From the IMG/VR virus record IMGVR_UViG_3300021400_000612, positions 25,719-89,718 of that record: a stretch of DNA of 64,000 nucleotides; one strand, given 5' to 3'. Below, in pieces: positions 3,591 through 63,443 of the stretch. Numbering within the stretch: the first letter of the stretch is position 1; every line of letters begins with the position of its first letter. The notes under the pieces are model-generated. The model searched no databases. It saw only the letters and a list, made by a program, of their open reading frames with translations, and had not been told where the DNA came from. Origin of the DNA: a virus. Its lineage: Duplodnaviria > Caudoviricetes. A program made the translations under genes and the position numbers.

Positions 3591-3860
3591 TGTAGGATTT
3601 AAAATTCATTTTGGCAGGCTTGCATAGTCTTGCTGAATAACTTATCGACCGACATATTTCTAAATAATGTGGCAAACGTAAGATAGCAAATAGAGAATTT
3701 TTAGATAGTATTTGCACCCCTTTAGAAAAGATTATTGATTACTGCTGAAGCTATTAAAGTTTATGCTTAAACTATTGGCATCATTAATTTCGTGCGTACC
3801 TTATTTAATTATGATGTCAATAGCGGTGGTACATATATTTATTAAAAAGTTTTAAAATAT

Positions 3861-3891
3861 TTTGCAGATTGAGATAAAAGTATTATATTTG
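3861..3891 (+). promoter_or_regulatory. Bacteroidota-type sigma promoter (-33/-7)
   Basis: TTTG (3861..3864), 19-bp spacer, TATATTTG (3884..3891), 50 bp upstream of ATG 3941. Confidence 0.7.
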
Positions 3892-3940
3892 TAGCGTCTT
3901 ATAACAAAGTAATAATTATTATAAATCTAAAGTTTAAGTT

Positions 3941-5284
3941 ATGGCAGAAGTTGATATTGATTTTGAAGGTCAGGGCGGTAACGCAGATAATGGCGGCTCT
4001 GGTAACGGAACTCAAGGTGGCTCTGGTAACGGTGCTAATGGAGGTCAGCAAGGAAATGGTGAAGTTACTGCTTTGAATGGTGGCGGCACTGCTGATATTA
4101 CTGGCAAAGATAACCAAGGTCAAGGTTCTGAAGGTAACGGTGATGGTCAAGGTAACCAAGGTGGTGAAGGTGAAGGTGATGGTGCTGGAGATGGACAGGG
4201 TAGTCAGCAAGATAACTCTTCTTCTACGGGGGAGCTTGTACCTGGTGACAATGTTGAATTTGAAGGCGAAACCTACACTGTAGCTGAGAATGGTGATTTA
4301 GTTGACAAAGATGGTAAAATCTTTAAAGAAGCTAAAGATGTAAAAGAATGGATTGAATCTCTTCAAGAAGAAACTGATGATACCATTAGTCTTGAAACTA
4401 TTCAGGATGCTTTTGGTCAGACTATTGTTGGGGAAGATGGAAAACCTGTAGAATTTACGAATGATGCTGCTGGTGTTCAGGCTTATGTTAAAGCTGTAGT
4501 AGATTTACAGCGTAACGAAATAGCCGAAGGTGCTGTTAATAAATTGTATGCTGATAATCCTTTGCTTAAGCAGTTTATTGATTACGTTCAGGTTAATGGT
4601 TCTCCTCGTGGTTTTGGTGAACTTCCTGATAGAACTGGTTGGCAGATTGATAAAGATAATGCAGTTCAGCAGGAAACTATCGTTCGTATGGCAGCCAGAG
4701 AATTTGGTAATGCTTCTTTGAATGACAATTATATTAAATATCTTAAAGACACAGGTGGTCTTTATGACGAGGCTGTAAATCAACTTAAAGCTTTGCAGGA
4801 TAAAGATAAAACTGTTAGAGCTGAGATTGAACAGCGTGCTAATGCTGCTCGTGCACAAGAGCAACAAGAAATTGAAACATATTGGAATAAAGTTAATGAC
4901 GTTATTAACGGCAGAACTATTGCTGGATATAAACTGCCTGACAGTTTTGTTAAAGAAGTGGATGGTAAAAAGCAAACTCTAACACCTACAGACTTCTATA
5001 ATTATCTTAGTAGGCAAACTGAAGTTGATGCTGATGGTAACAGAATTACTGGATATCAGAAAGACCTAGCGAATGAATCTGATGATGATTATTTAGCTCG
5101 TGAGCTAATTACTGCTTGGCTTATGTTTACTGGTGGTACGTATAAAGATTTAGCTACTATGGCTATTAAGGAGAACGAGGTTCGTACTCTTAAACTTAAA
5201 TCAAAAGAAAATCGTGCTCATAAAACAGTAAAAGTGACTAAGCCTGCTAGTAAATCAACACTTGATGATGTTCTTCTAGGTTAA
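3941..5284 (+). CDS. Conserved pre-capsid protein (putative scaffold)
   Basis: Immediately upstream of the major capsid gene. It has an acidic Gly/Asn/Gln-rich disordered N-terminus, with a GGCTCTGGTAACGG repeat at 3995 and 4019, then a helical region. Confidence 0.6.
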   Translation: MAEVDIDFEGQGGNADNGGSGNGTQGGSGNGANGGQQGNGEVTALNGGGTADITGKDNQGQGSEGNGDGQGNQGGEGEGDGAGDGQGSQQDNSSSTGELVPGDNVEFEGETYTVAENGDLVDKDGKIFKEAKDVKEWIESLQEETDDTISLETIQDAFGQTIVGEDGKPVEFTNDAAGVQAYVKAVVDLQRNEIAEGAVNKLYADNPLLKQFIDYVQVNGSPRGFGELPDRTGWQIDKDNAVQQETIVRMAAREFGNASLNDNYIKYLKDTGGLYDEAVNQLKALQDKDKTVRAEIEQRANAARAQEQQEIETYWNKVNDVINGRTIAGYKLPDSFVKEVDGKKQTLTPTDFYNYLSRQTEVDADGNRITGYQKDLANESDDDYLARELITAWLMFTGGTYKDLATMAIKENEVRTLKLKSKENRAHKTVKVTKPASKSTLDDVLLG

Positions 5285-5317
5285 TCACAACTAAAGTTTA
5301 ATAATTAATTAAAAGTT

Positions 5318-9731: not shown

Positions 9732-9764
9732 TCCATCACCTCTTCTACGGGGGGAGGTGATGGA
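9732..9764 (+). terminator. Intergenic hairpin capped by the dispersed motif
   Basis: 11-bp perfect stem TCCATCACCTC/GAGGTGATGGA enclosing TTCTACGGGGG. The U-tract is weak. Confidence 0.55.
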
Positions 9765-14548: not shown

Positions 14549-14793
14549 CATATAAAGAAGAAAGTTATGTTCTTGATACTCTCAAAGAGATACAAGAAAC
14601 TATTAGAAGTCCTGAGTTTAAACAACTTATAAAAGAAACTCACGAGAATAATATTATGCTTAGACAGATTATTAAAGTTATTAATACGTGGATTAAACAT
14701 CATCCTCAAGAAAATGCTAATGATTTTAATATGAATGTTATAGCTAATCTTGTTAGTAGCGGACTTGATTTTAATAAAATATTTAAAAGATAA
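14545..14793 (+). CDS. Hypothetical protein
   Basis: 82 aa; the stop overlaps the next start. Confidence 0.6.
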   Translation: MTYKEESYVLDTLKEIQETIRSPEFKQLIKETHENNIMLRQIIKVINTWIKHHPQENANDFNMNVIANLVSSGLDFNKIFKR

Positions 14794-15113
14794 TGGAGAT
14801 ACTAAGTAATACAATACAAACTACTCTTGAAAGTTTTGACTTTGCGTTTTGCATCATAGTTAATGTTCTAACTTATCTTATAATTAGACTTATCAATGAT
14901 AGAAATGGACACAAAGATTTAACAACTTGGAGTAAAAGACTTGTGTTGTTGTTGGTAATTCTTTCTATGGGGGTGCTATACTATCTATTAGGTAATGATA
15001 CTAAAGCTATCTTAAACAGTGCTATTCTTGCTCCTGTTTTTTGGTCTTGGATTATGAAACCTATATGTAAGTATTTCAAAGTTGATTATAAGAATGTTAA
15101 TCTTTTTGATTAG
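14793..15113 (+). CDS. Putative holin-like membrane protein
   Basis: 106 aa with three hydrophobic segments and a basic C-terminus, in the tail/lysis region. Confidence 0.5.
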   Translation: MEILSNTIQTTLESFDFAFCIIVNVLTYLIIRLINDRNGHKDLTTWSKRLVLLLVILSMGVLYYLLGNDTKAILNSAILAPVFWSWIMKPICKYFKVDYKNVNLFD

Positions 15114-15147
15114 CACGCCCGTAGAAGAAATGTATAATTAGATTATT

Positions 15148-16551
15148 ATGCTTAAACCAAGAAAGATTATAAGAGATTACACTCCTGATTACAAGGCTCT
15201 TGATACACTTGATAAACAGACTAAAACCATACAAGATTTGTATGACCAGGTTAGTGAATTTTATAGATTCTTATCTGACCCTACTTTTAGAGCTGAAATC
15301 AAAGGTGAGAGAGGTCCTCAAGGTGAACAAGGAGAACGTGGTCATGATGGAGCTAAGGGTGATAAGGGTGCTACTGGTAACCCTGGTCCCCAAGGCTCTA
15401 CTGGTCCTAGAGGAGCTGATGGTCTTCCTGGTCTGCCTGGTCCTACAGGTCCACAAGGTCCTGAAGGTATTCCTGGTCCAGAAGGTCCAAGAGGTCCTAG
15501 AGGATATACTGGTTTGCAAGGTCCTAAAGGTTTAGATGGTGCTCCTGGTGAAAAAGGAGATATGGGTGAACCTTGGGGTCTTAGCGGAGTTTTTAATACA
15601 TTTGATGAACTTCAAGCTGAAGCTATTAGAGTAGATGCTAAGCTCTATCTTGTAGCTTCTATGAACGATGAGAATGGTGATTTATATGTTTATAGAGAAA
15701 AGTATGATGACTTTATTTTTCTTAATAATATTATTTATGATTTAGCCTTTCAAATTGTTCAAGGTCCTCCAGGTAAGAACTTTCTTAATATTATTAAAGG
15801 CGCAAATATTGATAAGTATGGTAATATAACTATTGACAAAGAAGAAACTATCGATGCTAAAGGTTATTTACATACTAAGTTTACACTAAACTTTCTCAAA
15901 GGTAACGGTATTGCTAATAGCGAATGGACTGAAAGCGAAGAAGATGATGGATGGAGTACTCTTGTTATAACTTATGACAACGGCGAAACTGAAACTATTA
16001 GAGTTAAGAATGGTAAAACTGGTGCTCAAGGTCCTGTTGGTCCACAAGGTCCTCAAGGAGAAAAAGGTGATACTGGCGAGAAAGGCGACAAAGGAGATAA
16101 GGGAGATACTGGAGAAAAGGGAGAAAAAGGTGACACAGGTAATACTGGTCCTCAAGGAGAAACTGGTCCTCAAGGTGCACAAGGTCCTGCTGGTATTGAT
16201 GGTAAAAATCCTTATGAAGAAGCTGTTGAGGCTGGATATGATAAATCTATTGAAACTTTCTATGGTATAATTGAAGGTAACATTTGGATTGGTCCAGGTC
16301 AAAACTATGCTTATGTCTATGATAATGATGATTACAAATATGAAAATATTAATGTAAATAATCCTCTCAATATTGAATGTATTCAAGATTACATTTATGT
16401 TATTTATCCTGCTGATTCTGAGTTTATGTTTAATCTTACTATGAGTGGTTTTCCTGTTCCTATGGAACCTGTTGATACTACTACAATTCAAGATTATTAT
16501 ATTCTTAAATCAGTTAATCAATACGATGGTAATTTTAATATAACAATTTAA
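15148..16551 (+). CDS. Collagen-like tail fibre protein
   Basis: Two Gly-X-Y tracts (about 30 triplets near 15300-15570 and about 21 near 16010-16200) separated by a globular region. Confidence 0.8.
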   Translation: MLKPRKIIRDYTPDYKALDTLDKQTKTIQDLYDQVSEFYRFLSDPTFRAEIKGERGPQGEQGERGHDGAKGDKGATGNPGPQGSTGPRGADGLPGLPGPTGPQGPEGIPGPEGPRGPRGYTGLQGPKGLDGAPGEKGDMGEPWGLSGVFNTFDELQAEAIRVDAKLYLVASMNDENGDLYVYREKYDDFIFLNNIIYDLAFQIVQGPPGKNFLNIIKGANIDKYGNITIDKEETIDAKGYLHTKFTLNFLKGNGIANSEWTESEEDDGWSTLVITYDNGETETIRVKNGKTGAQGPVGPQGPQGEKGDTGEKGDKGDKGDTGEKGEKGDTGNTGPQGETGPQGAQGPAGIDGKNPYEEAVEAGYDKSIETFYGIIEGNIWIGPGQNYAYVYDNDDYKYENINVNNPLNIECIQDYIYVIYPADSEFMFNLTMSGFPVPMEPVDTTTIQDYYILKSVNQYDGNFNITI

Positions 16552-17258: not shown

Positions 17259-17369
17259 ATGGCTAATAAAAAGATTAAAGATAGAGGTGTCGCTGCACCT
17301 AGTATTCCTAAAGCAGGAATTACTAAAAGACGTAGAAGACTTGAAGATGGAGGCAAAGCTACGGAATAG
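17259..17369 (+). CDS. Small basic peptide, 36 aa (40 aa from ATG 17247; not in ORF track)
   Basis: MANKKIKDRGVAAPSIPKAGITKRRRRLEDGGKATE*, directly downstream of the 17208 promoter. Confidence 0.55.
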   Translation: MANKKIKDRGVAAPSIPKAGITKRRRRLEDGGKATE

Positions 17370-17757
17370 TTTATATAAGATAGAATTACATTGGATAAAG
17401 ATAATACCAATGGTTCTATGTGCGTTAAGTTTTACAGATACTATATTATCTTACTTTGAAGTTGAAGGTAGTATTATATCTTATCTTAACGCTCTTCTTG
17501 TTTGGTTGTTCTTATACTTATCATCCTTTGTATTCCAATTTTGTAGATGGCATAGAATGTTCTTATACTACTTATTAGTAGAAGGTTGCATTAATTGTTA
17601 TGATTATGAAATTGGAATACCTTTAGGTTTAAAAGATATGATAGTAGTTCAGCTAGCTCTTATTATGATATTTGTTAGTATTGGTTTATATTTTCATCAA
17701 CATGATAAGCACCCCTGTAGAAAAGATTGTGGCAAAACTGATGAGGCAATATGCTGA
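17347..17757 (+). CDS. Multi-pass membrane protein
   Basis: In-frame ATG 17347 is preferred because the TTG 17209 start lies inside the promoter. About four hydrophobic helices. Confidence 0.6.
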   Translation: MEAKLRNSLYKIELHWIKIIPMVLCALSFTDTILSYFEVEGSIISYLNALLVWLFLYLSSFVFQFCRWHRMFLYYLLVEGCINCYDYEIGIPLGLKDMIVVQLALIMIFVSIGLYFHQHDKHPCRKDCGKTDEAIC

Positions 17758-17992
17758 TGCTATTGACGCAGGTAACTCTCATCTTAACGCAGAACAAGCT
17801 ACAAATATACTTTCTGCTATTGCTCATATTGAAATGACTAAAGAAGAAGTTTGTGATTATCTTAATATGAGTCGAAGTAGATTTGATGATTATGTTCGTC
17901 TAGGTAGATTTCCTAGAGGTCGTAAACTTCCTCATAAGAATAATCTTATTTGGTATAAAGATGAAATTATGTGTGCAGTTGAAACTGAATGA
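17702..17992 (+). CDS. HTH DNA-binding protein (excisionase/AlpA-like, HTH_17-type)
   Basis: MTKEEVCDYLNMSRSRFDDYVRLGRFPRGRK...LIWYKDEI winged-HTH signature. Probable start ATG 17702. Confidence 0.75.
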   Translation: MISTPVEKIVAKLMRQYADAIDAGNSHLNAEQATNILSAIAHIEMTKEEVCDYLNMSRSRFDDYVRLGRFPRGRKLPHKNNLIWYKDEIMCAVETE

Positions 17993-20285: not shown

Positions 20286-20339
20286 GGCAGTGATGCTAAT
20301 TCTTCTCTACGGGGGAGCTTTCAGCTCACTGCCCTTTTT
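20286..20339 (+). terminator. Rho-independent terminator whose loop contains the dispersed motif
   Basis: GGCAGTGA (20286..20293)/TCACTGCC (20326..20333) stem plus TTTTT, with the motif at 20304..20318 inside. Confidence 0.7.
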
Positions 20340-49400: not shown

Positions 49401-52400
49401 ATGCATTTATTGATGATTATAGAGCTTTAAAACAAAACATTGAAAGTATCAAAAATACTCTTCGTTCTGATGGTACTGTAGATTATGAAGCTTTAAATAG
49501 AGCACAACTTGCTCTTGATAAATGGCTTAATGATAACGTTGAACTCCCCCTTAAAGGAGATGAGAAAGATGAATTTGGTCTTAAAACTATTAAATCTTTT
49601 TATACTAAGAAGATTGAGTTAGACCAAATGATGATTGATAATGCTCCAAAACTTTTTGCTAGATACAAAGAACTTCAAGCTAAGAGAAGAGATATTGTTA
49701 GTCATCTTAATAGCTCAGACTCTGACCCCCGTTGGGAAACTGAACTTAAAGATATTGATATAGAAATTAAATCTCTTACTGCTTCCGTTAGATTTGATGA
49801 AGCTAGCAATGCTTGGATTAAAAAATCTGATGAAGATATTCATAACGCTGAACTTTTGAGTAAGTATAAGAAAGAGATTAAAGAACTCTATGATGAATAT
49901 TATGATAAAGAAGAAAATGCTGGTTTTAGAGAAGAACTTGAAATTAATCTTCGTGTTGTAAAAGAAGCTGAACGTAGAGACCAATATGGTATTCCTCAAG
50001 CAAGTGCTGAAGAACTTAGAAATAATGAACGTTATCAACGTGCTGCTACTTGGCTTAGAAAAAATGCTATATTTAGTCCAGACCCAGAAACTTATGAAAA
50101 AGTTAATGAAGCGTTCAAAGTTTTAGGTAATGGTAGAAGAAAATCTCAAGCTTCTGAAATTCTTAAACTTGTTGCAACTTCTAGTTCAGCATATGATACT
50201 AAAGGTAGAGTTGATGGTACTAAACTCACAGCAGAACAGCAAAGAAATCTTAATATAGCTCAACAAAAAGAGTATAATGATAGGGTTAATGCTAATGCTA
50301 TGGCAGCTAGCCTTATAAATAGTGCTGGAGAAAACGATGAGATTTATACCAAAGAGTTCTACAAACTTATCTATAAAGAAGGCTATGCTAAGAGTGAAGA
50401 ATATAAAGCTAAAGTTAAAGAAATTAATGATATTCTTGCTAAACATTACGGCAATTCTAGAACTATCAACTTTGTTGATATGACTAAAGAAGAACTTGAA
50501 AAACTTGCAAATCTTTATAGAGAACTTAGAGGTATTAGAGAAGATATTGAGTTTGCTTGGAGTTCTAAATATGCTAAACTTCATGCAGAAGATGTTGATT
50601 ATGTAATCAATCAAGAAAACTTCGATATTGCTAAAAATGCTGCAGAACTTGCTGGTGTTGATATGAACTTATGGGAAGCTGTTAATACTGAATTTGCAAC
50701 AGATGAATCTGGTAAGAAAGTAAGGGTTCCCAATAAACTTATCTACGGGCGAGCTGTACCTTCTGAAGCTGCAAGAGCTAAAAAGAAGAAAAAGTCAGAT
50801 GCTAGTCTTTATATAGATGAAGCTAAAACAGAAGCTTTTAAAACTATTAGAGGTTATATGGTTTCTGAGCCAAGTGAATATTATTATGAAGAGTACGCCC
50901 GTAGAAAGAAAGAAGGTGTAGATGATGATGGTAGAACATTTGAAGAATGGTATGCTGACAATCATGTTTACAATCCTTATTCTAGGACTATGATTCCTAA
51001 TAAAGCTTGGATGGTTAGTAGACTTAATGATAATAATGAAGGTACTTGGGAACCTGGCTTTGCTCAATCTCATTCTGTTCCTAAAGAGGAATATAAGAAT
51101 CCTAATCATAAAGATGGCATTAGTCTTGGTGTAAACTTCAAAGATAAGGATGGTAGATATAAAAATGATGTTGCTCAAAATCAATATGAAAAAGAATTAC
51201 AAGAAGAAATAAGTAAACTTCTTATATCTCTTGCTCATGTTGAATCTGCTAAACGTTTCTTTGAATCTGGATATATGCCTATTATGTCTAAAGATGAAGA
51301 GCATGATATGAGATTCTATCTTAAAGAAGCTGCTAAAGGAGTAGGTTGGATTGAAGATACTAATACAGGTAAAGAATTAGATGAGAATATTAATTATGCA
51401 AATGATTATATTCCTTCTATGCCTATGACTACTAAATTACAAGATATGAAAGGTAAGAAAGTTAAGTTAGAAAAACCTGTATATAATGAAGGTGATGATG
51501 TTGATGAATACAATAAAAAAGTTGCAGAATATGAAAAAGCTCTTTTAAAACAACAAGCTGACGAAGAAAAGTATCATCAAGAACAACTTAATCGTGATTG
51601 GGAAAGTGTTATTAAACGTTTTATAAAAGAAGCTGCTCATTATAATGCTGTTCAAGATAATAGATTGATGCTCTATTATGGTCAAGAAATTCTTAAAAAT
51701 CAAATGAGATATGATACAAATATTGGACGTTCTGATTTAAAGATTGATAGAAGAAAATCTAAAGGAACTAAGACTGTATATGAAACTCGTGATTCTAAGA
51801 GAGAATATGACCAATATACTAATTGGATGCGTCGTCTTATGTTCAATCAATGGAAATATAATAATCCTCGTTGGACTCGTTGGGCTAATCTTGCACAATC
51901 ATTTACAAGTGCTAACTTTATGATGATGAATATTCGTGGTGGTATAGCTAACGTAACTCTTGGAGAAACTCAAATCTTTGCTGAAGCTTGGGCTAAAGAA
52001 TATTTTGGTACTAAAGAATATCTTAAAGGTAAAGGTATTTGGATGGCTAATGTTGCTAGTTATCTTGCTAATATGTATAGTGAAAAATCTTCTACTGTTG
52101 CAGATGCTATCATTAAATTTATGAATGTTGTAGACTTTGACGAAATTACAGGTGTAGTTCGTGCTAATCTTGACCCTGCAGTTTATCTCAAACGTGCTAG
52201 AGATTTCATGTTTAGTCCTCAGACTATGGGTGAACATTTCATGCAGAATGGTGCTATGTTTAGTATTATGCTTAGTCATAGACTTTATAAGAATGAAAAT
52301 CCTGAAATTAATGGACGTAGTTCTTATGTAATTAAAGGAAGAGCTGAAGTTATAAGAGATGCTCATGAACAAGCTTTAGCTAAAGTACTTGAAAATAGAG

Positions 52401-53575
52401 AAGATATTCTCAATCAATATAAAGATTTTAGAAACTCTCAACTTGCTGATGATAATGTTCGTAAAGAATATGCTTGGTTTAGAAAAGATATAACTACTGA
52501 ATTTGTAGAACGTCTTAGTCCTGAACTACAACAAGAATTTATTAGTATTCGTAAGCAATACGAAGATAAAGCTCTTAAAGAATTTGAAAAGCAACCTGAC
52601 ATTATGTCACAATTTAAACTTGGTGATAATGGAAAGTTAGCTTTTGCAGATGGTTCTATTTTAGCTGAACTTAACAATAATAGAGAAGCTAATTCAGAAG
52701 TTAATGATGCTTATAAAATTCTTGGCGCTCTTAAAGGACGTGTAATATCAGTTAATAAAAAGATTCATGGTGTATATGATAGAATGGGTTCTGCTCAACT
52801 TGAAAAGTATTGGTTGGGTGCTCTTGCAATGCAATATCATAAGCACATTTATCCTGGTATTATGAAACGTTATCGTAGACATGGTTACTATAATGAAGAA
52901 AGAGGTACTATTGAAAAAGGATGTTATAATGCTCTTATAGATTTCCTTGCTCTTCCTATTAGAAAATATCGTCAAGATATGAAAGATAATGAAGTTGAAG
53001 GAATGGAAGGTATTCAGAATCTATTTAAACATATTACTGATTTCTGTCTTAATGTTAAAACTCATTGGGCTCTCTTACCTGATTATGAACGTTCTAATAT
53101 TAGAAGAAATATTGGTGACATTGTTGGTGTATTAGGTGCTGTTGCTATTGCCATAGGTCTTAGAGCATTAGGTGATGATGACGATGAAGACGGAATTATT
53201 TACAACCTTTGTCTATATGAAGCTGACCGTCTTGCATCTGAAAGTTTCCAATTTAATCCTTTTGGTGCTATGTCTGAAGCTAAGAAACTTTGGAGTAATC
53301 CACTTGCAGTTCAAAGTATTATAAATGACGTTCTAGCATCTATGGGTACTATGGCTCAAATTCTAATTGAAGGTGAAGATTATGACCCATATTACACTAG
53401 TGGTAAATATTCTGGAGAACATAAACTTAAAGTATATATTGAACGTCGTATTCCTGTTTGGAGAGGTATCAATGCAATTCTTAATATTGCTGATGATAAT
53501 CATTACTACAAACTTGGAGATAATATGATTAGTGTAATACCTGTTAAAGATATTGCTAATTGGATTAAAGAGTAA
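40451..53575 (+). CDS. Virion-associated multisubunit-type RNA polymerase (fused double-psi beta-barrel), 4374 aa
   Basis: Catalytic GSDFDIDS (DFDID at 44939..44953, aa 1497-1501) preceded by SYRIPTEGKQS. Size and position match crAss-like virion RNAP. Confidence 0.9.
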   Translation: MGSINCSVAKRTRKVNTDRTNWDVDAQANIEQVSESINEKVSANHYSSVAWRNEAVQHSAVFGAKILDKVQRQHNQKVTGSMKSFLKNAIRNELNNVVVARIAREKGLPKATIKEQLGFNAETGLYSGNLQYVVENLKDTSESNNNIIAWYTEAYNDTINEATGISYSDEFFNNDVFAHSKLGSVKFDRDDTFGEYELAVALDVNDDNDTTDSEQGENPTDTDDSNVIAAFDHSGEHKDFMVGVDQDIKTYFDTLNKLKSSEKANDKWQLDKENLYEIVNTMDARACSSVLFHQGDFTDDQTMVDSIKRIARQCAGFEAFMKFAEDLENDADFRYKVYNNFAKRIMSKMETIVEDKNGKSNLANKRSNAVTALAFEFRNTIKSTAVSINNYEMEDRFNAWDKSLTNNPNIKYSEFLNKIATEPNDEDVLKFIGELTSMLQVYYPTIDKFAIANYLYNATDANGDIKVPTNLSNLKNILNRTIAASKRTAVAYNSLQYDIATEKNRKKRYALYNVDYVDNSNNQEAQALAELLAPYSAVRVDLNSRNTEGKLSSDVMNNNFLTNFINTLQSSLNRKFKDAEGNITYAQDCPLQHFKEFKFKSTQYNLSNILVEKVENGRVVNRGLFRKDGDRYVPTEYATDLLRISKFNGATSFDNSKNTLYSKMSKNDYITTAFINFFAGEGSINGTPMANYFMRIPSDSSTQFVVTAPRYEIAQSGRNALRNPDGSINKNHPIFQQFKNVFLQELIDMGDAINTIFVTDENGVVTRVEKDGKHLLQFNPNYSNTPVGRLYKKYHFNGKVVENFGTNNEKLTGNVFKSNRLVLVKNDGSEVNYGQQFIEQFVDFLYGGAIENNTNESVKFIKEKGRVVGVNLDAQSQDFRNALDDMIGRFIADYSREAINRIQGSKQFIKDSMKSLIGEDKDNKEFNRKVSEFILNTHLMYINFDDLFEGNSKFYGSAQDFLKRAKEVQGSGVPYGIVNYNNDFSIIQKSEKKGALLNEQSIIDRIGNIKQYDSFRGVTIVNTVRTPIECEYKKPDGSGKDGILVKTLASNFAKQAGRKRANDRDTQRARDMMAGFANAKVNDAQSYITFEEWVRRIAARGQLMKHLPLIEKIQKGETLTDTEMDAFVQVQKNFYYDQYYDEQTGIIVPRQIKNAEFVLVPQFIEGTQLKQIYDLMKKHDIDQLNTEETSKAGKHNVLTLWDNDGNLTEENIADFEAKADGAAEFFNYNNLYTQQETPQHVNAENKAGIQIMKKIIDNIPVGHKLYPIKQKFMTLYSANVQAAFQDLANELNIETDSNGYPVLDDNGQIKGLDYKKLYDLFREEAERLGVDSNLSDYFTLEDDIIEGVAQTLMPNFFSNVSNRVESVAQALFNSRITRQKLPGFHGAQVTSIGFKKENIQKSNTLRYHTRLNNKGKEVYAPYIEVMLPKSNFGLSAYDDATALKMLQEAGVDELISYRIPTEGKQSVAIMKVVGFTNDAQGSTIIVPDGWVPQTGSDFDIDSIYGIQFHFYVDEKTGKIKVPFMSDSDDDLVKRWHSYIRRHAEVGNAFENIEEDLKEYQDVIDNKETFTQFADVQRRTSETFAELPKRFKNLVAQISRDFKDENDKATYKESLENLITKLEAEIANRKYSNGVWMDSEGNAITNAQFEKLSEEEQDEYDWVGNNRDTILEVSDYIQSLKDVVAFLNNQQEVNIAYSKIGKITEFLSATQDKMYEDAAKENGLITLEEFGKLDINLQNSKASRDNEILNCMMTILADESSMEENLGRSNFDDISNTDKDNPGAIQKMMSPTARLKRERRSPYNFFDQADYQDDAMSGAKLKGFSVTRDNLCSVCNTVHPIAATDAYTMLYDATKYDIKELKEAFGEQNVNLSNDKKYIQVRHKTFGWTRNNKNIVGRILTSYSSETTAHILDAIKEGAAPNVNDLTFAVYKTFVDLGSDYNTAIGFMAQPAVTRIVDAYNRNKSIFTPFNTNPLQQAIRSLAEDLGVKVKNKNGKGISLNKLIEEINAKPELATAFKQIFGIDLHIGKVKGNEIEFENFALPTYLLKDRIDESGIFASSPVEGIDEKTLQQAFDLGILLKYSQFANFSQRIGDVARVTNPDKFGAKKNIFETNKVFDDIKELINRGDMPLQVMVGRNEDGTPNIISILEAIYPGIGNGDVDTFMRATPERASMYPPLYSFLKYATAPSVIINRTLFETQTDEFIAAVNSIEEVLGFDSKVTEKQYTDFQKYILGEIYSEIPFIKHPVVFNQKNNTFDVDINVDKQTEIGRIYGFSAPSDINFKPQRLYKPTKTDIETWRKLSPAQKVLWIQQNAKNPGIFGLFKVDLRNNNRDGSQTIEFSEDSVNIEDAYSMFNNAFYSENPLIRYAAADLIKYAFVVEGFQMSQHAVNKVIRNTPLMQSIETGGTGIVSYMRDAVRNIQDSINIDKVIENYVKSHDIQGLPKVNINDLNPRSLNDEKNKTIKIDQIDGKNVEREVDTPTGVLMIQINDDNISTLIENNILRIDEFGRYYERPYFKTTGRKGKTYKFEIVDGIGYAYPLNKLQPNEHSDWSTKLDNSPEPSAEYFEAIIKGEIDTSRKGDFMSPVTYKVNRVADFDINELKDNTVNKINNASSEILKGNAYYVWSPELSTKLPSIGDMSVQEIDGVVYDIMHVKADNVQKKYLGDNSSVTIQSGDVAYSDMINNPNYGLRAMGFKKPSLDVFMIRAHKQAEAVITPEELMSDTTEDLGSLSIDAIFTNASQGDTIAKEAQGLLQFRNSTQGRDIPVTSDSLFIISNYLTRVVDKINDQLKNFETEDGRHFKVTDPELINYIRNNPAERRRYLKVLLDARKIKRQFEAYLAFDTTSSDPELKRYLDNIKKKVVELDEALTSNGLELFAKDYLRGVSTNPLVQKDVITLLDGFYGSGMIEAMINDTQEMPNPLIQIITKEVMADIRAKEMQAEDRIKDFEDTLARIKKEATDAGMNINWDNIVDKTGKLIQPYKDAFIDDYRALKQNIESIKNTLRSDGTVDYEALNRAQLALDKWLNDNVELPLKGDEKDEFGLKTIKSFYTKKIELDQMMIDNAPKLFARYKELQAKRRDIVSHLNSSDSDPRWETELKDIDIEIKSLTASVRFDEASNAWIKKSDEDIHNAELLSKYKKEIKELYDEYYDKEENAGFREELEINLRVVKEAERRDQYGIPQASAEELRNNERYQRAATWLRKNAIFSPDPETYEKVNEAFKVLGNGRRKSQASEILKLVATSSSAYDTKGRVDGTKLTAEQQRNLNIAQQKEYNDRVNANAMAASLINSAGENDEIYTKEFYKLIYKEGYAKSEEYKAKVKEINDILAKHYGNSRTINFVDMTKEELEKLANLYRELRGIREDIEFAWSSKYAKLHAEDVDYVINQENFDIAKNAAELAGVDMNLWEAVNTEFATDESGKKVRVPNKLIYGRAVPSEAARAKKKKKSDASLYIDEAKTEAFKTIRGYMVSEPSEYYYEEYARRKKEGVDDDGRTFEEWYADNHVYNPYSRTMIPNKAWMVSRLNDNNEGTWEPGFAQSHSVPKEEYKNPNHKDGISLGVNFKDKDGRYKNDVAQNQYEKELQEEISKLLISLAHVESAKRFFESGYMPIMSKDEEHDMRFYLKEAAKGVGWIEDTNTGKELDENINYANDYIPSMPMTTKLQDMKGKKVKLEKPVYNEGDDVDEYNKKVAEYEKALLKQQADEEKYHQEQLNRDWESVIKRFIKEAAHYNAVQDNRLMLYYGQEILKNQMRYDTNIGRSDLKIDRRKSKGTKTVYETRDSKREYDQYTNWMRRLMFNQWKYNNPRWTRWANLAQSFTSANFMMMNIRGGIANVTLGETQIFAEAWAKEYFGTKEYLKGKGIWMANVASYLANMYSEKSSTVADAIIKFMNVVDFDEITGVVRANLDPAVYLKRARDFMFSPQTMGEHFMQNGAMFSIMLSHRLYKNENPEINGRSSYVIKGRAEVIRDAHEQALAKVLENREDILNQYKDFRNSQLADDNVRKEYAWFRKDITTEFVERLSPELQQEFISIRKQYEDKALKEFEKQPDIMSQFKLGDNGKLAFADGSILAELNNNREANSEVNDAYKILGALKGRVISVNKKIHGVYDRMGSAQLEKYWLGALAMQYHKHIYPGIMKRYRRHGYYNEERGTIEKGCYNALIDFLALPIRKYRQDMKDNEVEGMEGIQNLFKHITDFCLNVKTHWALLPDYERSNIRRNIGDIVGVLGAVAIAIGLRALGDDDDEDGIIYNLCLYEADRLASESFQFNPFGAMSEAKKLWSNPLAVQSIINDVLASMGTMAQILIEGEDYDPYYTSGKYSGEHKLKVYIERRIPVWRGINAILNIADDNHYYKLGDNMISVIPVKDIANWIKE

Positions 53576-53767: not shown

Positions 53768-54049
53768 TTATTCCATTATTGCCGTACTTGTATGATTACG
53801 AAATAGTGTCGGAGGAACACTAATATCATCGCTATCAACAACTTCTTCACAACAACCAGCACCAAATCTAGCATCAAGAATAGAGTCTAGAGTAACAACT
53901 AGTTGTTTATGATACATTTCTTCTACGGGGGAGCTAGTAATACCTTTTATACTTCCTAGATAAGAACAGAAAATAAAAAAGTAAGCAACACTAATAAACG
54001 CTAAAGATATACCAAATCCTATAAGTATATAAATACAAACATCTTTCAT
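53768..54049 (-). CDS. Small membrane-anchored protein
   Basis: ATG 54049 is preferred over GTG 54094, which lies in a hairpin. One TM helix; contains a motif copy (SSPVEE). Confidence 0.55.
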   Translation of the reverse strand: MKDVCIYILIGFGISLAFISVAYFFIFCSYLGSIKGITSSPVEEMYHKQLVVTLDSILDARFGAGCCEEVVDSDDISVPPTLFRNHTSTAIME

Positions 54050-54708: not shown

Positions 54709-55140
54709 TCAAACACCAGTAGAACCATGTCCACCTTCACCACGTTCAGTTTCACTAAGTTCAGTAGCCTCAACAGGCATAACTTGAGGATAAGGCATAA
54801 TAATAAGTTGACAAACTTTATCACCAACCTTATAACTTTCTGTAGTACCTTTACTTTGAGGACGGAAAGTACACATAATTTCTCCACGATAACCAGAGTC
54901 GATAACTCCTACACAATTAGTAAGAGCAAGACCATATTTACGAATAGAACTACGTGGGAAAATAAGACCAACATAACCCTCAGGAATTTCTACTGCAAGT
55001 CCAGTACCATAAACAAAGCACTGAAAGTCATCAGACCAATGCTTACTAGTAGCAGTTAAATCAAGTCCTGCATCTCCAGGCTTAGCATAAGCTGGGATTT
55101 TAGCTTCAGGAACTAACTTTTTAAACTTTACTTCTAACAT
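54709..55140 (-). CDS. dut: dUTP pyrophosphatase (trimeric dUTPase)
   Basis: All five motifs present: AGLDL, PRSS, GVIDSGYRGEI, GDKVCQL, RGEGGHGSTG. Confidence 0.97.
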   Translation of the reverse strand: MLEVKFKKLVPEAKIPAYAKPGDAGLDLTATSKHWSDDFQCFVYGTGLAVEIPEGYVGLIFPRSSIRKYGLALTNCVGVIDSGYRGEIMCTFRPQSKGTTESYKVGDKVCQLIIMPYPQVMPVEATELSETERGEGGHGSTGV

Positions 55141-55254: not shown

Positions 55255-55307
55255 TCTTCTACGGGGGAGCAATTAGCACTATAAGTAGTACTAGCTCCCC
55301 CGTAGAA
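55255..55307. repeat. Inverted pair of the dispersed motif
   Basis: TTCTACGGGGGAGC (55257..55270) and GCTCCCCCGTAGAA (55294..55307), a 14-bp perfect inverted repeat with a 23-bp spacer. Confidence 0.9.
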
Positions 55308-55322
55308 AAGAATGTTGATTAA

Positions 55323-56390
55323 CTATGCAGCTTTATAATCTATAACTAAATTAAGAGCTTTACTTGTAGCAAGTCTATCTCCACCAAAGATAAGATTATC
55401 CATACGCTTTTCGCCTTCTTGTTTCTTAACATTGCTATAATAGCCAGTGATGGCATTATAAGCACCCCAAGCGTTACCTATAATATGTTCTTGAGCAACT
55501 CCATTTTTATAATAATCAAACATAGTATTAAGAATGTTAGCTTTACGAGTACTAATATTAGTCTTCTGCATAGCAAGCCAATCTCTTTCAAATACTTTGC
55601 GAATACCATTTTCATGGTTATACTCGACAACAGCTTCATATTCAGCTTTAGTAAGTTGTAGACGAGCAATATAATCTCTAACTTGGTCATCAGTCATCTT
55701 AATAGTAAGAAGACTTTCATAAAGAAGTTGAGAACTCTTAGCATAATCTATTGCAGTACGAAGCATTTCAGCACCAAAGTCAAGTCTATCTTGTGCAGTC
55801 TTTGTATGTCTGATACGAATATGTGCAGTAGCTTCTTCTAATCCAGCATTAAGCATATTAAGACAGAAGACTCTGACAGGAGTAAATAGCACATCAATAC
55901 TACCACTACCATCGTGAGAAGTACTAAATACCAAATAGTTATCAATCGGGTCTTCTCCAACTCTAGTTTCAATAGGAAGCTTAGCTGTAATAAATACCTT
56001 ATGTCCATATCCGAAACATCCTGCATATTGGAAGAGAGCTTTTCCTTCTCCAATGGCATTATCTATAAAATTAAATGCATCAATATTTTGAACAACTTCA
56101 TACTTAGATTTAACGATACCAAGAGGGATATTCTTATCTACACGATATGTGCCATAAGCATTAGGACAAGGACGATAAATGTTACCTTTGTGAGCAAAGT
56201 CGCCCATAGTTTCATTAACAGAGTTATCTCCATGAATGTTAAAAGGCATCTTAGCAACAAGTTCACACTTATCTACCATAAAATCTAGACCAGCTTTCTT
56301 AATAACTTCTTCTGAGGTTTTACAATCAGTGACATCTTTGCCCATTTTACCACCCCAAGGAAGTCCGTAAACATCAAACTTTTTAGCCAT
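55323..56390 (-). CDS. DUF932 family (phage/plasmid-like TIGR03299) protein
   Basis: AGLDFMV, LGIVKSKYEVVQNIDAF, TSHDGSGS, TPVRVFCLN, IRHT, GNAWGAYNAITGY. Confidence 0.85.
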   Translation of the reverse strand: MAKKFDVYGLPWGGKMGKDVTDCKTSEEVIKKAGLDFMVDKCELVAKMPFNIHGDNSVNETMGDFAHKGNIYRPCPNAYGTYRVDKNIPLGIVKSKYEVVQNIDAFNFIDNAIGEGKALFQYAGCFGYGHKVFITAKLPIETRVGEDPIDNYLVFSTSHDGSGSIDVLFTPVRVFCLNMLNAGLEEATAHIRIRHTKTAQDRLDFGAEMLRTAIDYAKSSQLLYESLLTIKMTDDQVRDYIARLQLTKAEYEAVVEYNHENGIRKVFERDWLAMQKTNISTRKANILNTMFDYYKNGVAQEHIIGNAWGAYNAITGYYSNVKKQEGEKRMDNLIFGGDRLATSKALNLVIDYKAA

Positions 56391-57555: not shown

Positions 57556-57755
57556 AATGTTATATCTCCTATGTGACTTTTATTTTTAACATCAACAGCA
57601 TTACGTTCTAAATCTGCTTCATTCCAAAAAGAAATACTACATAAACCTTTATTTACCATAAGTATTCCTTCTTCATTTACAATTAATAGATGTTTAGTAT
57701 ATTCTTTATCAGTTTTATTTAGCTTAACATCAGCAGTATAAAGACTAGTCACCAT
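57552..57755 (-). CDS. Hypothetical protein
   Basis: 67 aa, operonic overlaps. Confidence 0.5.
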   Translation of the reverse strand: MVTSLYTADVKLNKTDKEYTKHLLIVNEEGILMVNKGLCSISFWNEADLERNAVDVKNKSHIGDITL

Positions 57756-57972
57756 TTTTAGTAAAATATTTAAGTTCTCCTTTAACTTTCAGCTCCCCTT
57801 TAGAAGAAATTATGGTTAAATTAGAACCAGGAAATTTCTCATTAAGAGTGTCACATAAATCTTCAAGACAACTTATAGCATTAGTATAAGCTCTATCAGA
57901 AAGATGTAATATAACAATAGTGCAACAAATAAGTATCGCACAAAGTAATAAACTAATACTTAACCAAATCAT
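57745..57972 (-). CDS. Small membrane-anchored protein
   Basis: N-terminal hydrophobic helix; contains a motif variant (SSKGE). Confidence 0.55.
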   Translation of the reverse strand: MIWLSISLLLCAILICCTIVILHLSDRAYTNAISCLEDLCDTLNEKFPGSNLTIISSKGELKVKGELKYFTKNGD

Positions 57973-58142
57973 CTTCTATAATTATTATCAGTATAAACAA
58001 TAGTTTCTTTAATTTTACCACAATTGGTACAACGAGAGATAATAGTCATTCCGACTACAGCACCATAAGGATTTTTAATATCCTTCTTTTCAAGAACTTC
58101 ATATTTATGAAGTCCAAGATAACATTTTAAATCTTGAGTCAT
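57969..58142 (-). CDS. Small Zn-finger-like protein, 57 aa (DUF1660-like; not in ORF track)
   Basis: MTQDLKCYLGLHKYEVL...SRCTNCGKIKETIVYTDNNYRR*, with a C-x4-H...CxxC pattern and ATGA overlaps at both ends. Confidence 0.7.
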   Translation of the reverse strand: MTQDLKCYLGLHKYEVLEKKDIKNPYGAVVGMTIISRCTNCGKIKETIVYTDNNYRR

Positions 58143-59071
58143 AACAAATTACGTTTAATAAATTCTTGTTTAAGAGGTTCAGCAACTAACTTAGCATTAG
58201 GATGAGGAGAACCTGAAACACCATCAGCTCTAAGAGCAAAGAAATGTTTCCAATCATCTACAAAAGCAGTATGAATTAATTGAGTTTTAGTAGCAAGAGG
58301 AAGAACTTCTCTAGCTTGTTGAGGTTTCCAACCAATTTCAATAAGTTTATTATAACAATATTCACAAATAGTTAATGCACATAAATAATAATCTATATTA
58401 GTCCAATCTCTATCTGCTTTTCTACAAATATCATCACAATAACTAATAACACTATCAAATTGATGTGACTCTACGTAAGGTAAATGTTCTTCACCAAGCA
58501 ACCAAGCAGGAAGTCCAATCTTAATTTGACCATCATTACGCTTATTATAATTACAATATCTAGTACTTTCTTCTGCAATAGAATTAACTCTGTGACGATT
58601 AAATTCACGAGATACTCCTATGTTAGTAGTAAAAGAAACTGTAACACGACGAGCATGAAAATCAGTTGGAGTACAAATATATTTTAAATCACAAAGAAAA
58701 TTAGTTTCATATATAACACGAAGATTAGTAGTTACATAACAAATACCAGCATCATAATTAACTTTACTATAAGGATTTTGTTCATAAAATTCTTCAAAAC
58801 TATTATAATTAGCATCAGAATAGTCTACATTTCTTTTAAGATAAACAGTACCATGTTCAAGCATAGCACCATGAATCTTATTAAAATTAAGCTCCCCTGT
58901 AGAAGAATCTTGTCTTAGAATAACTCTCTTAACAAATTCTTCATCAGTTTCACCATCATTCTTAGGAGTACTTTGATAACAAACTCTAGTACAACGAGCA
59001 ATATGTTTCCACATATCTTCTAGAATAGTACCTTGTTCCCATATTTCAGCTTTTGGTCTAACAAGTTCCAT
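58139..59071 (-). CDS. thyX: Flavin-dependent thymidylate synthase
   Basis: HGAMLEH, SREFNRHR-x7-ESTRY, QQAREVLP, WKHFFALR. Confidence 0.95.
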   Translation of the reverse strand: MELVRPKAEIWEQGTILEDMWKHIARCTRVCYQSTPKNDGETDEEFVKRVILRQDSSTGELNFNKIHGAMLEHGTVYLKRNVDYSDANYNSFEEFYEQNPYSKVNYDAGICYVTTNLRVIYETNFLCDLKYICTPTDFHARRVTVSFTTNIGVSREFNRHRVNSIAEESTRYCNYNKRNDGQIKIGLPAWLLGEEHLPYVESHQFDSVISYCDDICRKADRDWTNIDYYLCALTICEYCYNKLIEIGWKPQQAREVLPLATKTQLIHTAFVDDWKHFFALRADGVSGSPHPNAKLVAEPLKQEFIKRNLL

Positions 59072-60633: not shown

Positions 60634-60637
60634 ATTG

Positions 60638-61493: not shown

Positions 61494-61494
61494 A

Positions 61495-62742
61495 TTAATT
61501 ATTAATTATATTAATACCTCTAGCATGGAATGGACATTGTTTAATACCTGAACGATTTCTAAATTCTACAAGCATTAATTTACCTATATACTTTTCTTTA
61601 TTAGCAAATATTTCACGTTGAACATCTTGAGGTTTATTAATACTACATTCAAAGAGTTCATCATTAATATCGTTCCGAAGAACAAAGAGAGGAAGGTCAC
61701 TACGTTTATGCTCAGAAATAATATCAACAATAATAAACTTACCATCATCAACTTTCTTAAACTTAAACATAGCTTGATTACGTTTACCAAATTGATATTC
61801 AGCAGAAGGATTACGAAGAATAAGACCTTCAAAACCAAGAGATATATTATAATCTCTAAGTCGTGTAGCATCTTCTAAGCTAGATACTATTTCGGTGTCA
61901 AGTAAAAATATTTGAGATTTATTGTTTAAATGACTAGTTTTATCTAATATACCATAAATACTATGTTCAATGTTATTAAGTCTGAAATCATTTCTAACTT
62001 CAGCACTCATATTCTCACAACAAATATCATAACACCAATATTGAAGTTTATAATGTTGTGCAAGTTGAGTATTCTTAACAAAAGAATTAATATCATTAAC
62101 TGAATATCCAGGAAGATAAAGTTCACCATCAAGACAAGCTCCTTCTTCTATCATCATATCAAGAAGTTCTTCACTTATCTTAGGAAGGAGAATTTCATCC
62201 ATCCAATACATTTTAGAAGTCCAATCTTCACCAGTACGAGAATGATATGTTAGATGACAAAGAGTAAATAAATCTTCATAAGTTTTTTCAGCACCTATAA
62301 TACATCTAAGACCATCAATCTTCCACTGACCAAGCATAGTACCATACTTTTCAAAAGGTTTATTATCTTCAAGTACTTTAGCAAGCATAGGAAGAACAAA
62401 ACCTTCAGAAGTAGTAGAATACTTAGGAAGATAAGTATTAAGAAAAAATTTTAGATTAGAAAGACGTTGTACCTCATATTTACAAGGAGTTTCAAGTGTA
62501 TTTACTTCTTCTTGTGTTAAACCGTCTTTAAGCTCAATTAATTCTTTATAACCTTCTTTACGTTTAGCATTAACTCTAGATTGAAGTTCATTAGCATTTT
62601 TAAGAGTTATAGGAATACGTTCACTATGAAGATTACCACCAACAAGACCATATTCAATAAGTATATAGCCAGCGTTTTCAAACTCATAGCCTTTCCATAC
62701 AAGAGGTTTACCATTACTAGACCTTTTATAAAGTGTTATCAT
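61495..62742 (-). CDS. lig: ATP-dependent DNA ligase
   Basis: Motif I QWKIDGLR, LDGELY, YWCYD, EGLILR, FKFKK, an OB-fold C-terminus and a WGR-like N-terminus (YGLVGG). Confidence 0.93.
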   Translation of the reverse strand: MITLYKRSSNGKPLVWKGYEFENAGYILIEYGLVGGNLHSERIPITLKNANELQSRVNAKRKEGYKELIELKDGLTQEEVNTLETPCKYEVQRLSNLKFFLNTYLPKYSTTSEGFVLPMLAKVLEDNKPFEKYGTMLGQWKIDGLRCIIGAEKTYEDLFTLCHLTYHSRTGEDWTSKMYWMDEILLPKISEELLDMMIEEGACLDGELYLPGYSVNDINSFVKNTQLAQHYKLQYWCYDICCENMSAEVRNDFRLNNIEHSIYGILDKTSHLNNKSQIFLLDTEIVSSLEDATRLRDYNISLGFEGLILRNPSAEYQFGKRNQAMFKFKKVDDGKFIIVDIISEHKRSDLPLFVLRNDINDELFECSINKPQDVQREIFANKEKYIGKLMLVEFRNRSGIKQCPFHARGINIINN

Positions 62743-62933
62743 ACTTTTTCTAATTTAATTTCAACTTTAATAGGTTCGTCTGTATAAGACATATTATTAA
62801 ATTCAGGAAATTGTCCTGTAATATCAATCATATAAGGAGCAGAATACCAACCTTCTAATTCATCGTCATAAACAGTTTCTTCTGTATGAATATAAATTTT
62901 TCCATCTTTATCTTTAGCTACATATCCAATCAT
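62739..62933 (-). CDS. Small hypothetical protein
   Basis: 64 aa (YVAKDKDGKIY), with an ATGA overlap with the ligase. Confidence 0.6.
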   Translation of the reverse strand: MIGYVAKDKDGKIYIHTEETVYDDELEGWYSAPYMIDITGQFPEFNNMSYTDEPIKVEIKLEKV

Positions 62934-62936
62934 AAT

Positions 62937-63443
62937 TTAATCTTTTTTAGGAGGTTTAATTTTAAAAGTTAAATTACCAAACTGAGCACTAAGCTTTTTA
63001 AGTTTTTCTTTATTACTTATTTCTTTACCCATACCAGGTAAAGTACCCTCAATAGATTTCTTTCTACGGGGGTGCTTACCATGCTCTTTATCCCATTTAT
63101 CTTTAGCTTTCTTACCACCATACCAAATAGGAGGATTTTCTTTTTCGTATTCAAGATTAGCAAAATGTCTATCCATAAGAACAACAGAATAATAATCATA
63201 TTTATCCTCTTCTTCTTTTAGATATTTTTCTAAAGCATAAAGATAAGAACTAATTTCTCTTTGATAAGGATAACCAATAGTTTGCATCATTCTCATACCT
63301 TGAAGAATACGAGAACAATCTAGATAAATAAGTTGCTGATTGAGGTATCCTTGAATACTTTTCTCAGCAACTCTTTGGTCTATCATTCTATGGTCAGAAT
63401 CATCTAAAGGAATAATATAATCACGCAACTCTGTGTATTCCAT
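62937..63443 (-). CDS. Hypothetical protein with basic C-terminus
   Basis: 168 aa (HFANLEYEKENPPIWY); contains a motif copy (HPRRK). Confidence 0.65.
   Translation of the reverse strand: MEYTELRDYIIPLDDSDHRMIDQRVAEKSIQGYLNQQLIYLDCSRILQGMRMMQTIGYPYQREISSYLYALEKYLKEEEDKYDYYSVVLMDRHFANLEYEKENPPIWYGGKKAKDKWDKEHGKHPRRKKSIEGTLPGMGKEISNKEKLKKLSAQFGNLTFKIKPPKKD

Follow-up and report, generated by a model that had tools for sequence, protein, structure and literature searches.

The subject of this study is a 64,000-nt stretch of DNA from a tailed phage, a crAss-like phage of the gut (IMG/VR record IMGVR_UViG_3300021400_000612), referred to below as the window, which spans bases 25719-89718 of a single genome of 89,718 bp (31.7% GC). 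Scattered through its genes, essential ones included, and the gaps between them is a GC-rich word, and the observation that this word recurs genome-wide, with which the original prediction began, is confirmed. The core of the word, TCTACGGGGG, occurs 14 times in the window, exactly as first counted, and not once in 100 dinucleotide-preserving shuffles. If up to two mismatches to TCTYCTACRGGGGWGC are allowed, the window holds 22 copies, as compared to 0.05 expected, and the 16-mer family overall comes to 22-25 copies. Over the whole genome, 28 copies lie within three mismatches of TCTTCTACGGGGGAGC, divided between the strands as 15 plus and 13 minus, and the commonest 10-mer of the genome is CCCCCGTAGA. 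The word is a real DNA signal and apparently an undescribed one: a search of the literature found no paper containing it or its crAssphage spelling, except as unrelated primers.

I will give positions within the window, unless whole-genome coordinates are indicated, and will refer to open reading frames (ORFs) by their limits. The relatives used for comparison include cr271_1 (Hacihdavirus), with 18 copies of the word, ctcc615 (Wotdevirus), with 16, and five IMG/VR genomes of CheckV completeness 99-100%, designated G001 to G005, with 21-28 copies each and none of the reversed control pattern. These genomes match the present one at no more than about 75% nucleotide identity, over part of its length only.

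The first copy in the window (3714..3729, minus strand) is a weak variant, TTTTCTAAAGGGGTGC, between ORFs 2586..3506 and 3941..5284; it shows two mismatches to the degenerate pattern and more than three to the strict consensus, and so falls outside the count of 28. An exact copy follows at 4220..4235 (+) within ORF 3941..5284, which precedes the major capsid gene; here it reads SSTGEL, and this site is orthologous in cr271_1, ctcc615, G001, G003, G004, G005, p-crAssphage and crAss002. The copy TCTTCTACGGGGGGAG at 9741..9756 (+) is intergenic and occupies the loop of a hairpin with the stem ccatcacc/ggtgatgg; cr271_1 has a counterpart at the matching gene junction (20442). ORF 14793..15113 contains a weak variant, CTTTCTATGGGGGTGC (14961..14976, +), with three mismatches, which fits the core pattern YYYYYAYRGGGG, and at the junction of that ORF with ORF 15148..16551 lies TCTTCTACGGGCGTGC (15113..15128, -). 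In the overlap of ORFs 17347..17757 and 17702..17992, TTTTCTACAGGGGTGC (17709..17724, -) reads KHPCRK. Next come an intergenic TTCTCTACGGGGGAGC (20303..20318, +) in the loop of a hairpin that, with the T-run after it, resembles a terminator, and a copy at 20874..20889 (-) in ORF 20768..21154, reading GSPVEK, which is kept at the same place in G005 and absent from cr271_1. The intergenic TCTTCTACGGGGGAAC (21454..21469, +) precedes gene 21506..22189, which encodes a tail ring protein, by 37 nt and has a counterpart at the matching junction of cr271_1 (31981). ORF 23103..23846, a tail tubular protein gene by synteny, carries CCTTCTACGGGGGAGC (23397..23412, +; PSTGEQ), found at the same place in G005 and p-crAssphage and absent from seven other genomes.

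ORF 28182..30395 contains an inverted pair 392 bp apart, consisting of TCTTCTACAGGGGAGC (28604..28619, +; SLLQGS), orthologous in cr271_1, ctcc615, G001 and G004, and TTTTCTACGGGGGAGC (28996..29011, -; SSPVEK). The 2318-aa ORF 33491..40447 contains exact copies at 35184..35199 (-; SSPVEE) and 37049..37064 (+; SSTGEQ), as well as CTTTCTACAGGGGAGC at 39390..39405 (-; SSPVER), the last with orthologues in cr271_1, ctcc615, G004, G005 and p-crAssphage. The gene 40451..53575 encodes a protein of 4374 aa which has no Pfam match; the DFDID catalytic motif of RNA polymerases (RNAP) at residue 1497 upholds its earlier label of virion RNAP. Four copies lie within it: TTCTCTACGGGGGAGC again (42981..42996, +; FLYGGA), orthologous in six genomes, including cr8_1 with its own spelling; CCTTCTACAGGGGAGC (46623..46638, -; SSPVEG), also orthologous in six genomes; a weak variant, ACTCCTACAGGGGTAC (47885..47900, +), with two mismatches to the degenerate pattern and more than three to the strict consensus; and another weak variant, TTATCTACGGGCGAGC (50739..50754, +; LIYGRA), at whose orthologous place the relatives have no motif.

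Beyond the RNAP gene, the small minus-strand ORF 53768..54049 carries an exact copy at 53919..53934 (+), which reads SSPVEE and is orthologous in G005. Between a dUTPase-like gene (54709..55140) and a DUF932 gene (55323..56390) lies an intergenic head-to-head inverted pair (55255..55309) made up of copies at 55255-55270 (+) and 55294-55309 (-) separated by a 23-bp spacer; the equivalent junction of cr271_1 holds just one copy (68766). The small ORF 57745..57972 (-) contains TCTTCTAAAGGGGAGC (57792..57807, -; SSKGEL), the thyX gene 58139..59071 (-), whose label holds, contains TCTTCTACAGGGGAGC (58891..58906, -; SSTGEL), and ORF 62937..63443 (-) contains CTTTCTACGGGGGTGC (63060..63075, +; KHPRRK). 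The thyX copy sits within an insertion of 12 residues (LRQDSSTGELNF) relative to the ThyX of cr271_1.

The exact 16-mers at 4220, 37049, 53919 and 55255 on the plus strand and at 35184 on the minus strand are all where they had been placed. About 11 further variants had also been proposed, a few of which, at 3714, 14961, 47885 and 50739, are weak and perhaps non-functional. The claim that the word is read in five frames is correct, with seven copies of the SSTGE type, eight of the SSPVE type, two of FLYGGA/LIYGRA, one of SLLQGS and two of KHP(C/R)RK. Nine copies lie outside every ATG-started frame of at least 50 codons.

When 214-243 distinct instances, drawn from the present genome and from relatives, are aligned, information is limited to about 22 positions: a weak aAtY, then TCTTCTACGGGGGAGC, then T(a). 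The full word may be written aAtY-TCTTCTACGGGGGAGC-Ta, asymmetric and some 20-22 bp long. The five bases 5' of TACG are nearly always T or C. In the G-run no variation is seen, either A or T may stand at position 14 of the 16-mer, where the consensus has A, and the central CG is occasionally CA. No extended homology was found beyond about 22 bp across the aligned instances, so that the word has sharp boundaries around a core of high information. The only CpG of the word is the most variable position of the core in all genomes: TACG has become TACA in seven of the 28 copies here, TACA is dominant in Rudgehvirus, and TATG appears in crAss002. Deamination of cytosine at a CpG yields exactly these two forms, TACA and TATG.

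The original prediction held that selection acts on the nucleic acid and not on a peptide, and this is supported. Permuting synonymous codons within each gene, a comparison that had been suggested as a check and that preserves both the protein and the codon usage, makes the coding copies collapse, which places the constraint on the DNA: there are 19 coding copies against a mean of 2.1 and a maximum of 7, and the core pattern YYYYYAYRGGGG has 20, as compared to a mean of 0.44 and a maximum of 3 in 300 such shuffles. Between G001 and G002, which are 92.5% identical, mismatches affect 7 of 336 motif bases and 183 of 2042 bases in the 50-bp flanks (Fisher p = 2e-6), a rate of change four times lower in the motif than around it. 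A similar disparity in pieces 91-96% identical (1 of 144 motif bases, 77 of 867 flanking bases) is biased, the pieces having been chosen for an exact copy, and is not relied on. Across genera, many copies occupy orthologous codons, even though the surrounding proteins are only 30-55% identical.

A second suggested check was whether the copies fall in variable linkers of proteins. Some of the lineage-specific ones do, beside small indels, but others arose by substitution in place, and most copies are in-place and orthologous. Genic copies number 19 of the 28, ten sense and nine antisense, and within a block of 50 kb of late genes, all in one direction, sense and antisense copies are equally conserved. 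Since the two are alike in both frequency and conservation, the signal must track the strands of DNA, not transcripts. Selection therefore acts on the DNA.

The exact 16-mer retrieves many crAss-like contigs of about 90 kb from IMG/VR. The core YYYYYAYRGGGG occurs 28 times in this genome and not at all in the reversed control, and 11-32 times in twelve other Intestiviridae (control, 0-1). Each genome tested from that family, including p-crAssphage and the cultured crAss002, uses its own spelling at shared positions, and at one shared position in the SNF2 gene five spellings are found. The dialects are ATCCTCTACGGGGGGTC in cr11_1 and cr3_1; CTCCATCCTC(T/C)ACGGGGGGTCTAC in p-crAssphage, which also has a GGGGAG form; CTCCTTTA(C/T)GGGGGAA in crAss002; CTCCTTTACAGGGGWGWTTACA in Rudgehvirus jaberico; and CCTTTTACGGGG(G/C)GGC in cr8_1. 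That dispersed copies are respelled in concert, while their places are kept, is the signature of co-evolution with a reader acting in trans, and the proposal of a genome-wide cis-acting network is borne out to this extent. Rudgehvirus jaberico (NC_091965), although filed under Crudevirinae, is nearer to crAss002 (Churivirinae) than to cr11_1 or p-crAssphage, grouping with crAss002 in 39 of 47 proteins as well as in motif dialect.

The word belongs to the phages and not to their hosts, as had been proposed. Among the bacterial contigs listed, the exact 16-mer finds single matches only, apart from one contig of 93.8 kb binned with Bacilli. That contig, JAFRAK010000011.1 (93,767 bp, from the metagenome-assembled genome of a "Bacilli bacterium" from goat duodenum), has at least six exact 16-mers and the size of a crAss-like genome; it probably comes from a phage and was misbinned. 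Different spellings are found, moreover, among phages that share a host genus. A word of the host, or the Chi site of the host, was rejected on the basis of the single matches in the contigs listed and of the private 9-mer of crAss001, described below, which in 17 Bacteroidales genomes is no commoner than its reversed control.

To describe the arrangement of the copies, I defined them by pattern, so that in the spacing statistics weak copies may have been missed or wrongly counted; the genomes used for spacing and conservation are related and hence not independent samples. In seven genomes, neighbours less than 700 bp apart are inverted in 25 of 25 pairs, the only direct pair within that distance being a duplicate from the end overlap of one assembly. 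Gaps between copies on the same strand are much less variable than chance would give, their medians being 5-8 kb. The coefficient of variation (CV) of plus-strand gaps is 0.27 in cr271_1, 0.32 in G004, 0.36 in G001, 0.25 in ctcc615 and 0.29 in Rudgehvirus (P<=0.003), and crAss002 gives 0.36 and 0.47, one value per strand (P<=0.003). For one strand of each of these six genomes, with CV values of 0.25-0.36, P is at most 0.001. In the present genome, all four pairs closer than 700 bp are inverted and the plus strand has a CV of 0.54-0.57 (P 0.006-0.019), while on its minus strand regularity does not reach significance. In 11 Intestiviridae genomes taken together, neighbours comprise 89 convergent, 89 divergent and 81 same-strand pairs, with no difference between convergent and divergent ones. 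Distances below 1 kb occur in one of the 81 same-strand pairs and in 51 of the 178 opposite-strand pairs, and exactly one minus copy lies between consecutive plus copies in 67 of 142 intervals, as compared to 36 expected.

It had been argued that the mixed orientation of the copies speaks against a primase site or any other strand-specific site. This argument fails, because each strand bears its own regular array, which is how a strand-specific signal serving both directions would be expected to look. Several of the functions then put forward are not supported. A palindromic site like matS does not suit an asymmetric word. Transcription, packaging and ejection each have a fixed direction and do not fit, and it is unlikely that the word serves the virion RNAP as a hairpin promoter, given that copies run evenly through the late genes on both strands and that the early transcripts of the crAss-like phage phi14:2 have no common motif upstream. 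(Only host-type middle promoters are described in the study of that phage.) A promoter of any kind, whether of host sigma type or an N4-like hairpin, is likewise not supported, considering that two thirds of the copies are intragenic, that both orientations occur and that the flanks are uninformative past about 4 nt. Of the functions suggested, a Chi-like element is kept as an option, and the earlier interpretation as a whole is partly supported.

A process that may run either way anywhere on the genome, as replication and recombination do, fits what is observed. The reading I favor, with a probability of about 45%, is that selection maintains the word as a cis-acting way-mark, oriented and private to the phage, which the phage's machinery of replication and recombination reads on the motif strand. 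The reader is most probably encoded by the phage, and I infer that it tracks along DNA and acts in a manner dependent on direction or strand. With an array on each strand of about one copy per 5-8 kb, a tracking enzyme traveling in either direction would meet a correctly oriented copy within a few kilobases. Such a way-mark could work in two ways. By the first, it would be Chi-like and private, and a helicase-nuclease would be stopped or converted by it on phage DNA and almost never on host DNA. By the second, it would be a strong site for priming or helicase loading on the template of the lagging strand, similar to single-strand initiation (ssi) sites. Neither version is likely taken singly, and the two seem about equally probable. 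Of relevance to the first, these phages encode an SF1 helicase, to which relatives add a PD-(D/E)XK nuclease and RecT.

The likeness to Chi, as read by RecBCD or AddAB, is that of an oriented word scattered through genes, read on one strand by a tracking enzyme and marking DNA as its own. The density is comparable too, E. coli having about one Chi per 5 kb. However, Chi is 5-8 nt long, owned by the host and skewed with the direction of replication, whereas the present word is 16-22 bp long (9 bp in Steigviridae), phage-private, spelled by lineage, equal on both strands and, among the bacterial contigs listed, not over-represented. The second version has its models in ssi sites and single-stranded hairpin promoters (the G4 origin, ssiA/ssiB of RSF1010, Frpo of F, the N4 early promoters, mitochondrial OriL), which are strand-specific, are read on unwound DNA and in some cases have to be present on each strand. 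The motif strand is the only one able to form a small hairpin, and the virion RNAP of phi14:2 prefers single-stranded templates. The hairpin of the word is, however, not conserved in all dialects, and a replicon has just one or a few known ssi sites, as opposed to about 13 per strand here. The trinucleotide sites of primases are far shorter than the word.

Several observations weigh against a way-mark for replication and recombination. A word of 16-22 bp far exceeds both known Chi sites (5-8 nt) and the initiation sites of primases (3-5 nt). Regularity of spacing is strong on one strand, and in several genomes that of the second is often merely moderate. The one-strand hairpin, UCUUC(UACG)GGGGA, is not found in all dialects and shows no site-by-site covariation. 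The word is absent from three Suoliviridae, and de novo screening of two of them turned up no other over-represented word; since a primase is reported to be common to the whole order, this gives no support to a general primase code. Reports of fixed terminal repeats in crAss001 put that phage beyond the reach of an argument from permuted ends. Finally, a hunt for the reader through discordance between dialect and phylogeny brought no universal reader to light.

In that hunt Rudgehvirus offers no leverage, grouping as it does with crAss002. A screen for proteins unusually divergent in cr8_1 led to a protein of 85 aa encoded outside the window (minus strand, 8321-8578 in whole-genome coordinates), between the genes for PolB and the SF1 helicase. 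Its features are a zinc ribbon of four cysteines and, toward the C terminus, a conserved SRELIxELxARGYxGxL motif. Homologues occur in cr271_1, G001, G003 and G004, all of which share the spelling of this genome; none was found beside the helicase gene of G005 or of ctcc615, nor in cr8_1, Crudevirinae or crAss002. Confined to genomes of one dialect, the protein was rejected as a universal reader, and lacking a conserved histidine, it was rejected as an HNH nuclease. A gene of 90 aa at the same position in ctcc615 is labelled "PacI restriction endonuclease"; if it is a homologue, the absence of a conserved histidine from the family makes this label look wrong. An architectural reader like IHF was suggested by the record of cr11_1, where the two genes at the place of 21506-22189 and 22202-23158 are annotated as IHF-like, with an "IHF / histone-like protein" at the first. 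In the present genome the first, 21506-22189, is instead phage tail ring protein 2 (Pfam CrAss_Ring_2, 2e-51), and the protein of the second, 22202-23158, just downstream, matches no family. An IHF-like reader was rejected on these grounds, and the 22202 protein, once named as a DNA-binding candidate, is not promising.

Of the alternatives to a tracked way-mark, the one that survives best, though I consider it rather unlikely, is that the copies are sites on duplex DNA bound by a regulatory or architectural protein of the phage, such as a stoperator-like repressor or an organizer of the nucleoid or of packaging, with orientation mattering only through geometry. The stoperators of Cluster A mycobacteriophages (L5, Bxb1) are a close parallel, being asymmetric, some 13 bp long and similar in number per genome, with a spelling that co-varies with the phage repressor (PMC6550527; PMC9283540). 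The dialects of the present word change in concert in the same way, and a sharply bounded word with a core of high information is what a binding site would look like. Stoperators, however, lie mostly in one orientation with respect to transcription and serve a lysogenic repressor, whereas two thirds of the present copies are intragenic and their orientations alternate and are equally common. A repressor is not expected either, since crAss-like phages are reported to be incapable of lysogeny (PMC8375218). The supposed IHF-like gene, as noted, encodes a tail ring protein. Simple binding also leaves unexplained why neighbors on the same strand are excluded below 1 kb while inverted ones are common.

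It is somewhat harder to believe that a phage nickase cuts one strand at each copy, leaving regularly spaced nicks, on both strands of the virion or replicating DNA, that could serve as entry points for strand-displacement synthesis or recombination. Long, asymmetric, strand-specific words are indeed repeated along the genomes of lytic phages that are nicked in this way (T5, phiKMV-like and tf-like phages), the nick consensus sequences of phiKMV-like phages being about 10-20 nt, and the present word has the same qualities, at some 20-30 copies per genome. A ligase gene is present (61495..62742), adjoined in cr271_1 by a gene for an HNH endonuclease. Against this, the nicks of T5 fall on one strand only and are irregularly spaced, no nickase conserved across all dialect lineages was found, and the zinc-ribbon protein confined to genomes of the same dialect has no conserved catalytic histidine.

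Improbable, too, is molecular drive, by which the word would have no function within the cell and would spread because DNA bearing it is favored in transfer or recombination between co-infecting phages, for example through biased gene conversion. The parallel is with the DNA uptake sequences (DUS) of Neisseria and the uptake signal sequences (USS) of Pasteurellaceae, which are dispersed, lie largely in ORFs in tolerated frames, show no bias of orientation, form some inverted pairs and occur in lineage dialects that co-evolve with the receptor (PMC1939737, PMC3630211, PMC3868556). Positions here have also been gained and lost between genera, often beside small indels in variable linkers. But uptake ignores orientation and uptake sequences are not especially evenly spaced (PMC1939737), whereas each strand of these phages has a regular array; conservation of position deep across subfamilies argues for function at each place; and a phage genome has no known step resembling uptake.

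Very improbable, and disfavored, is an RNA element, in which UCUUC(UACG)GGGGA would fold as a hairpin with a UNCG-type tetraloop and act in RNA processing or stability or as a site for a protein. The 5' half does vary between T and C only (0-4 purines per position in 243 instances), so that pairing with the G-run would be kept, only the motif strand can fold, by means of G-U pairs, and some intergenic copies (9741, 20303) lie in hairpin loops. Yet half of the genic copies are antisense to mRNA and equally conserved, and spacing on each strand is independent of gene direction. The G-run never changes to A where pairing would survive, the variants GGGGCGGC of cr8_1 and GGGGAG of p-crAssphage disrupt the stem, and the outer pairs do not covary within genomes. 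Flanking stems are not generally enriched (0.43 vs 0.38), only an intergenic subset lying in terminator loops, and the window has no match to Rfam 15 at gathering score, nor was any known RNA family or tRNA-like element found in it. The weakest alternative, scarcely credible, is a miniature mobile element or relic of a transposon end, like the repetitive extragenic palindromic (REP) sequences or miniature inverted-repeat transposable elements, inserting into genes: inverted pairs 39-200 bp apart do resemble paired terminal repeats, the thyX copy lies in its 12-residue insertion and the reverse complement of the word shares GTAG with REP sequences, but most copies replace residues in place, aligned residue for residue with orthologues across genera, no flanking homology or target duplication extends past about 22 bp, and all copies are respelled jointly by lineage and regularly spaced.

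Outside the Intestiviridae, the genomes tested from Crevaviridae, Suoliviridae and Steigviridae do not have this word. Three Steigviridae of the gut nevertheless proved, on de novo search, to have private 9-mers, differing from one another by one letter and present on both strands: CTTCTGGAG in crAss001 (MH675552), with 29 occurrences as compared to 2 for its reverse and no more than 7 for any 9-mer of the same composition; CTTCTGGTG in DAC15, with 24; and CTTCAGGAG in cr106_1, with 15. On the minus strand the 9-mer of crAss001 is regularly spaced (CV 0.46, P=0.001), though regularity and conservation of position are weaker for these 9-mers than for the Intestiviridae word, and that they represent a related phenomenon is only a lead. 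The 9-mer of crAss001 equals the word of the present genome minus ACGGG, possibly by coincidence. The same kind of search found no private word in phi14:2 or in two Suoliviridae. The Crevaviridae genome cr127_1 (NC_055886) has an unrelated GC-rich word of 24-27 nt, GAACACCTCTCGCCCTTGTGGCCATTA, in 11 copies, mostly in inverted pairs 80-560 bp apart.

In the human gut no viruses are more abundant than the crAss-like phages, and their mode of replication is reported to be unknown (PMC10136315). A conserved genome-wide signal written into the genes for polymerase and helicase and into the capsid module offers a handle on their DNA metabolism, and it is present in cultured phages, namely crAss002 and Rudgehvirus jaberico and, in the form of 9-mers, crAss001 and DAC15. 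The dialects provide a compact marker for assigning lineages and can flag phage contigs that have been misbinned. More speculatively, and as something of a long shot, the phages of the crAss family may tag their own DNA with a private, co-evolving Chi-like word for self. A phage helicase-nuclease or replisome would read the word on one strand, and ends or forks on phage DNA would then be rescued or re-primed within a few kilobases, while host DNA, which almost never bears the word, would be left to degradation. Were this so, the even, strand-alternating arrays of the Intestiviridae genomes tested and the 9-mers of the three gut Steigviridae would constitute a new class of virus-encoded code for distinguishing self from non-self.

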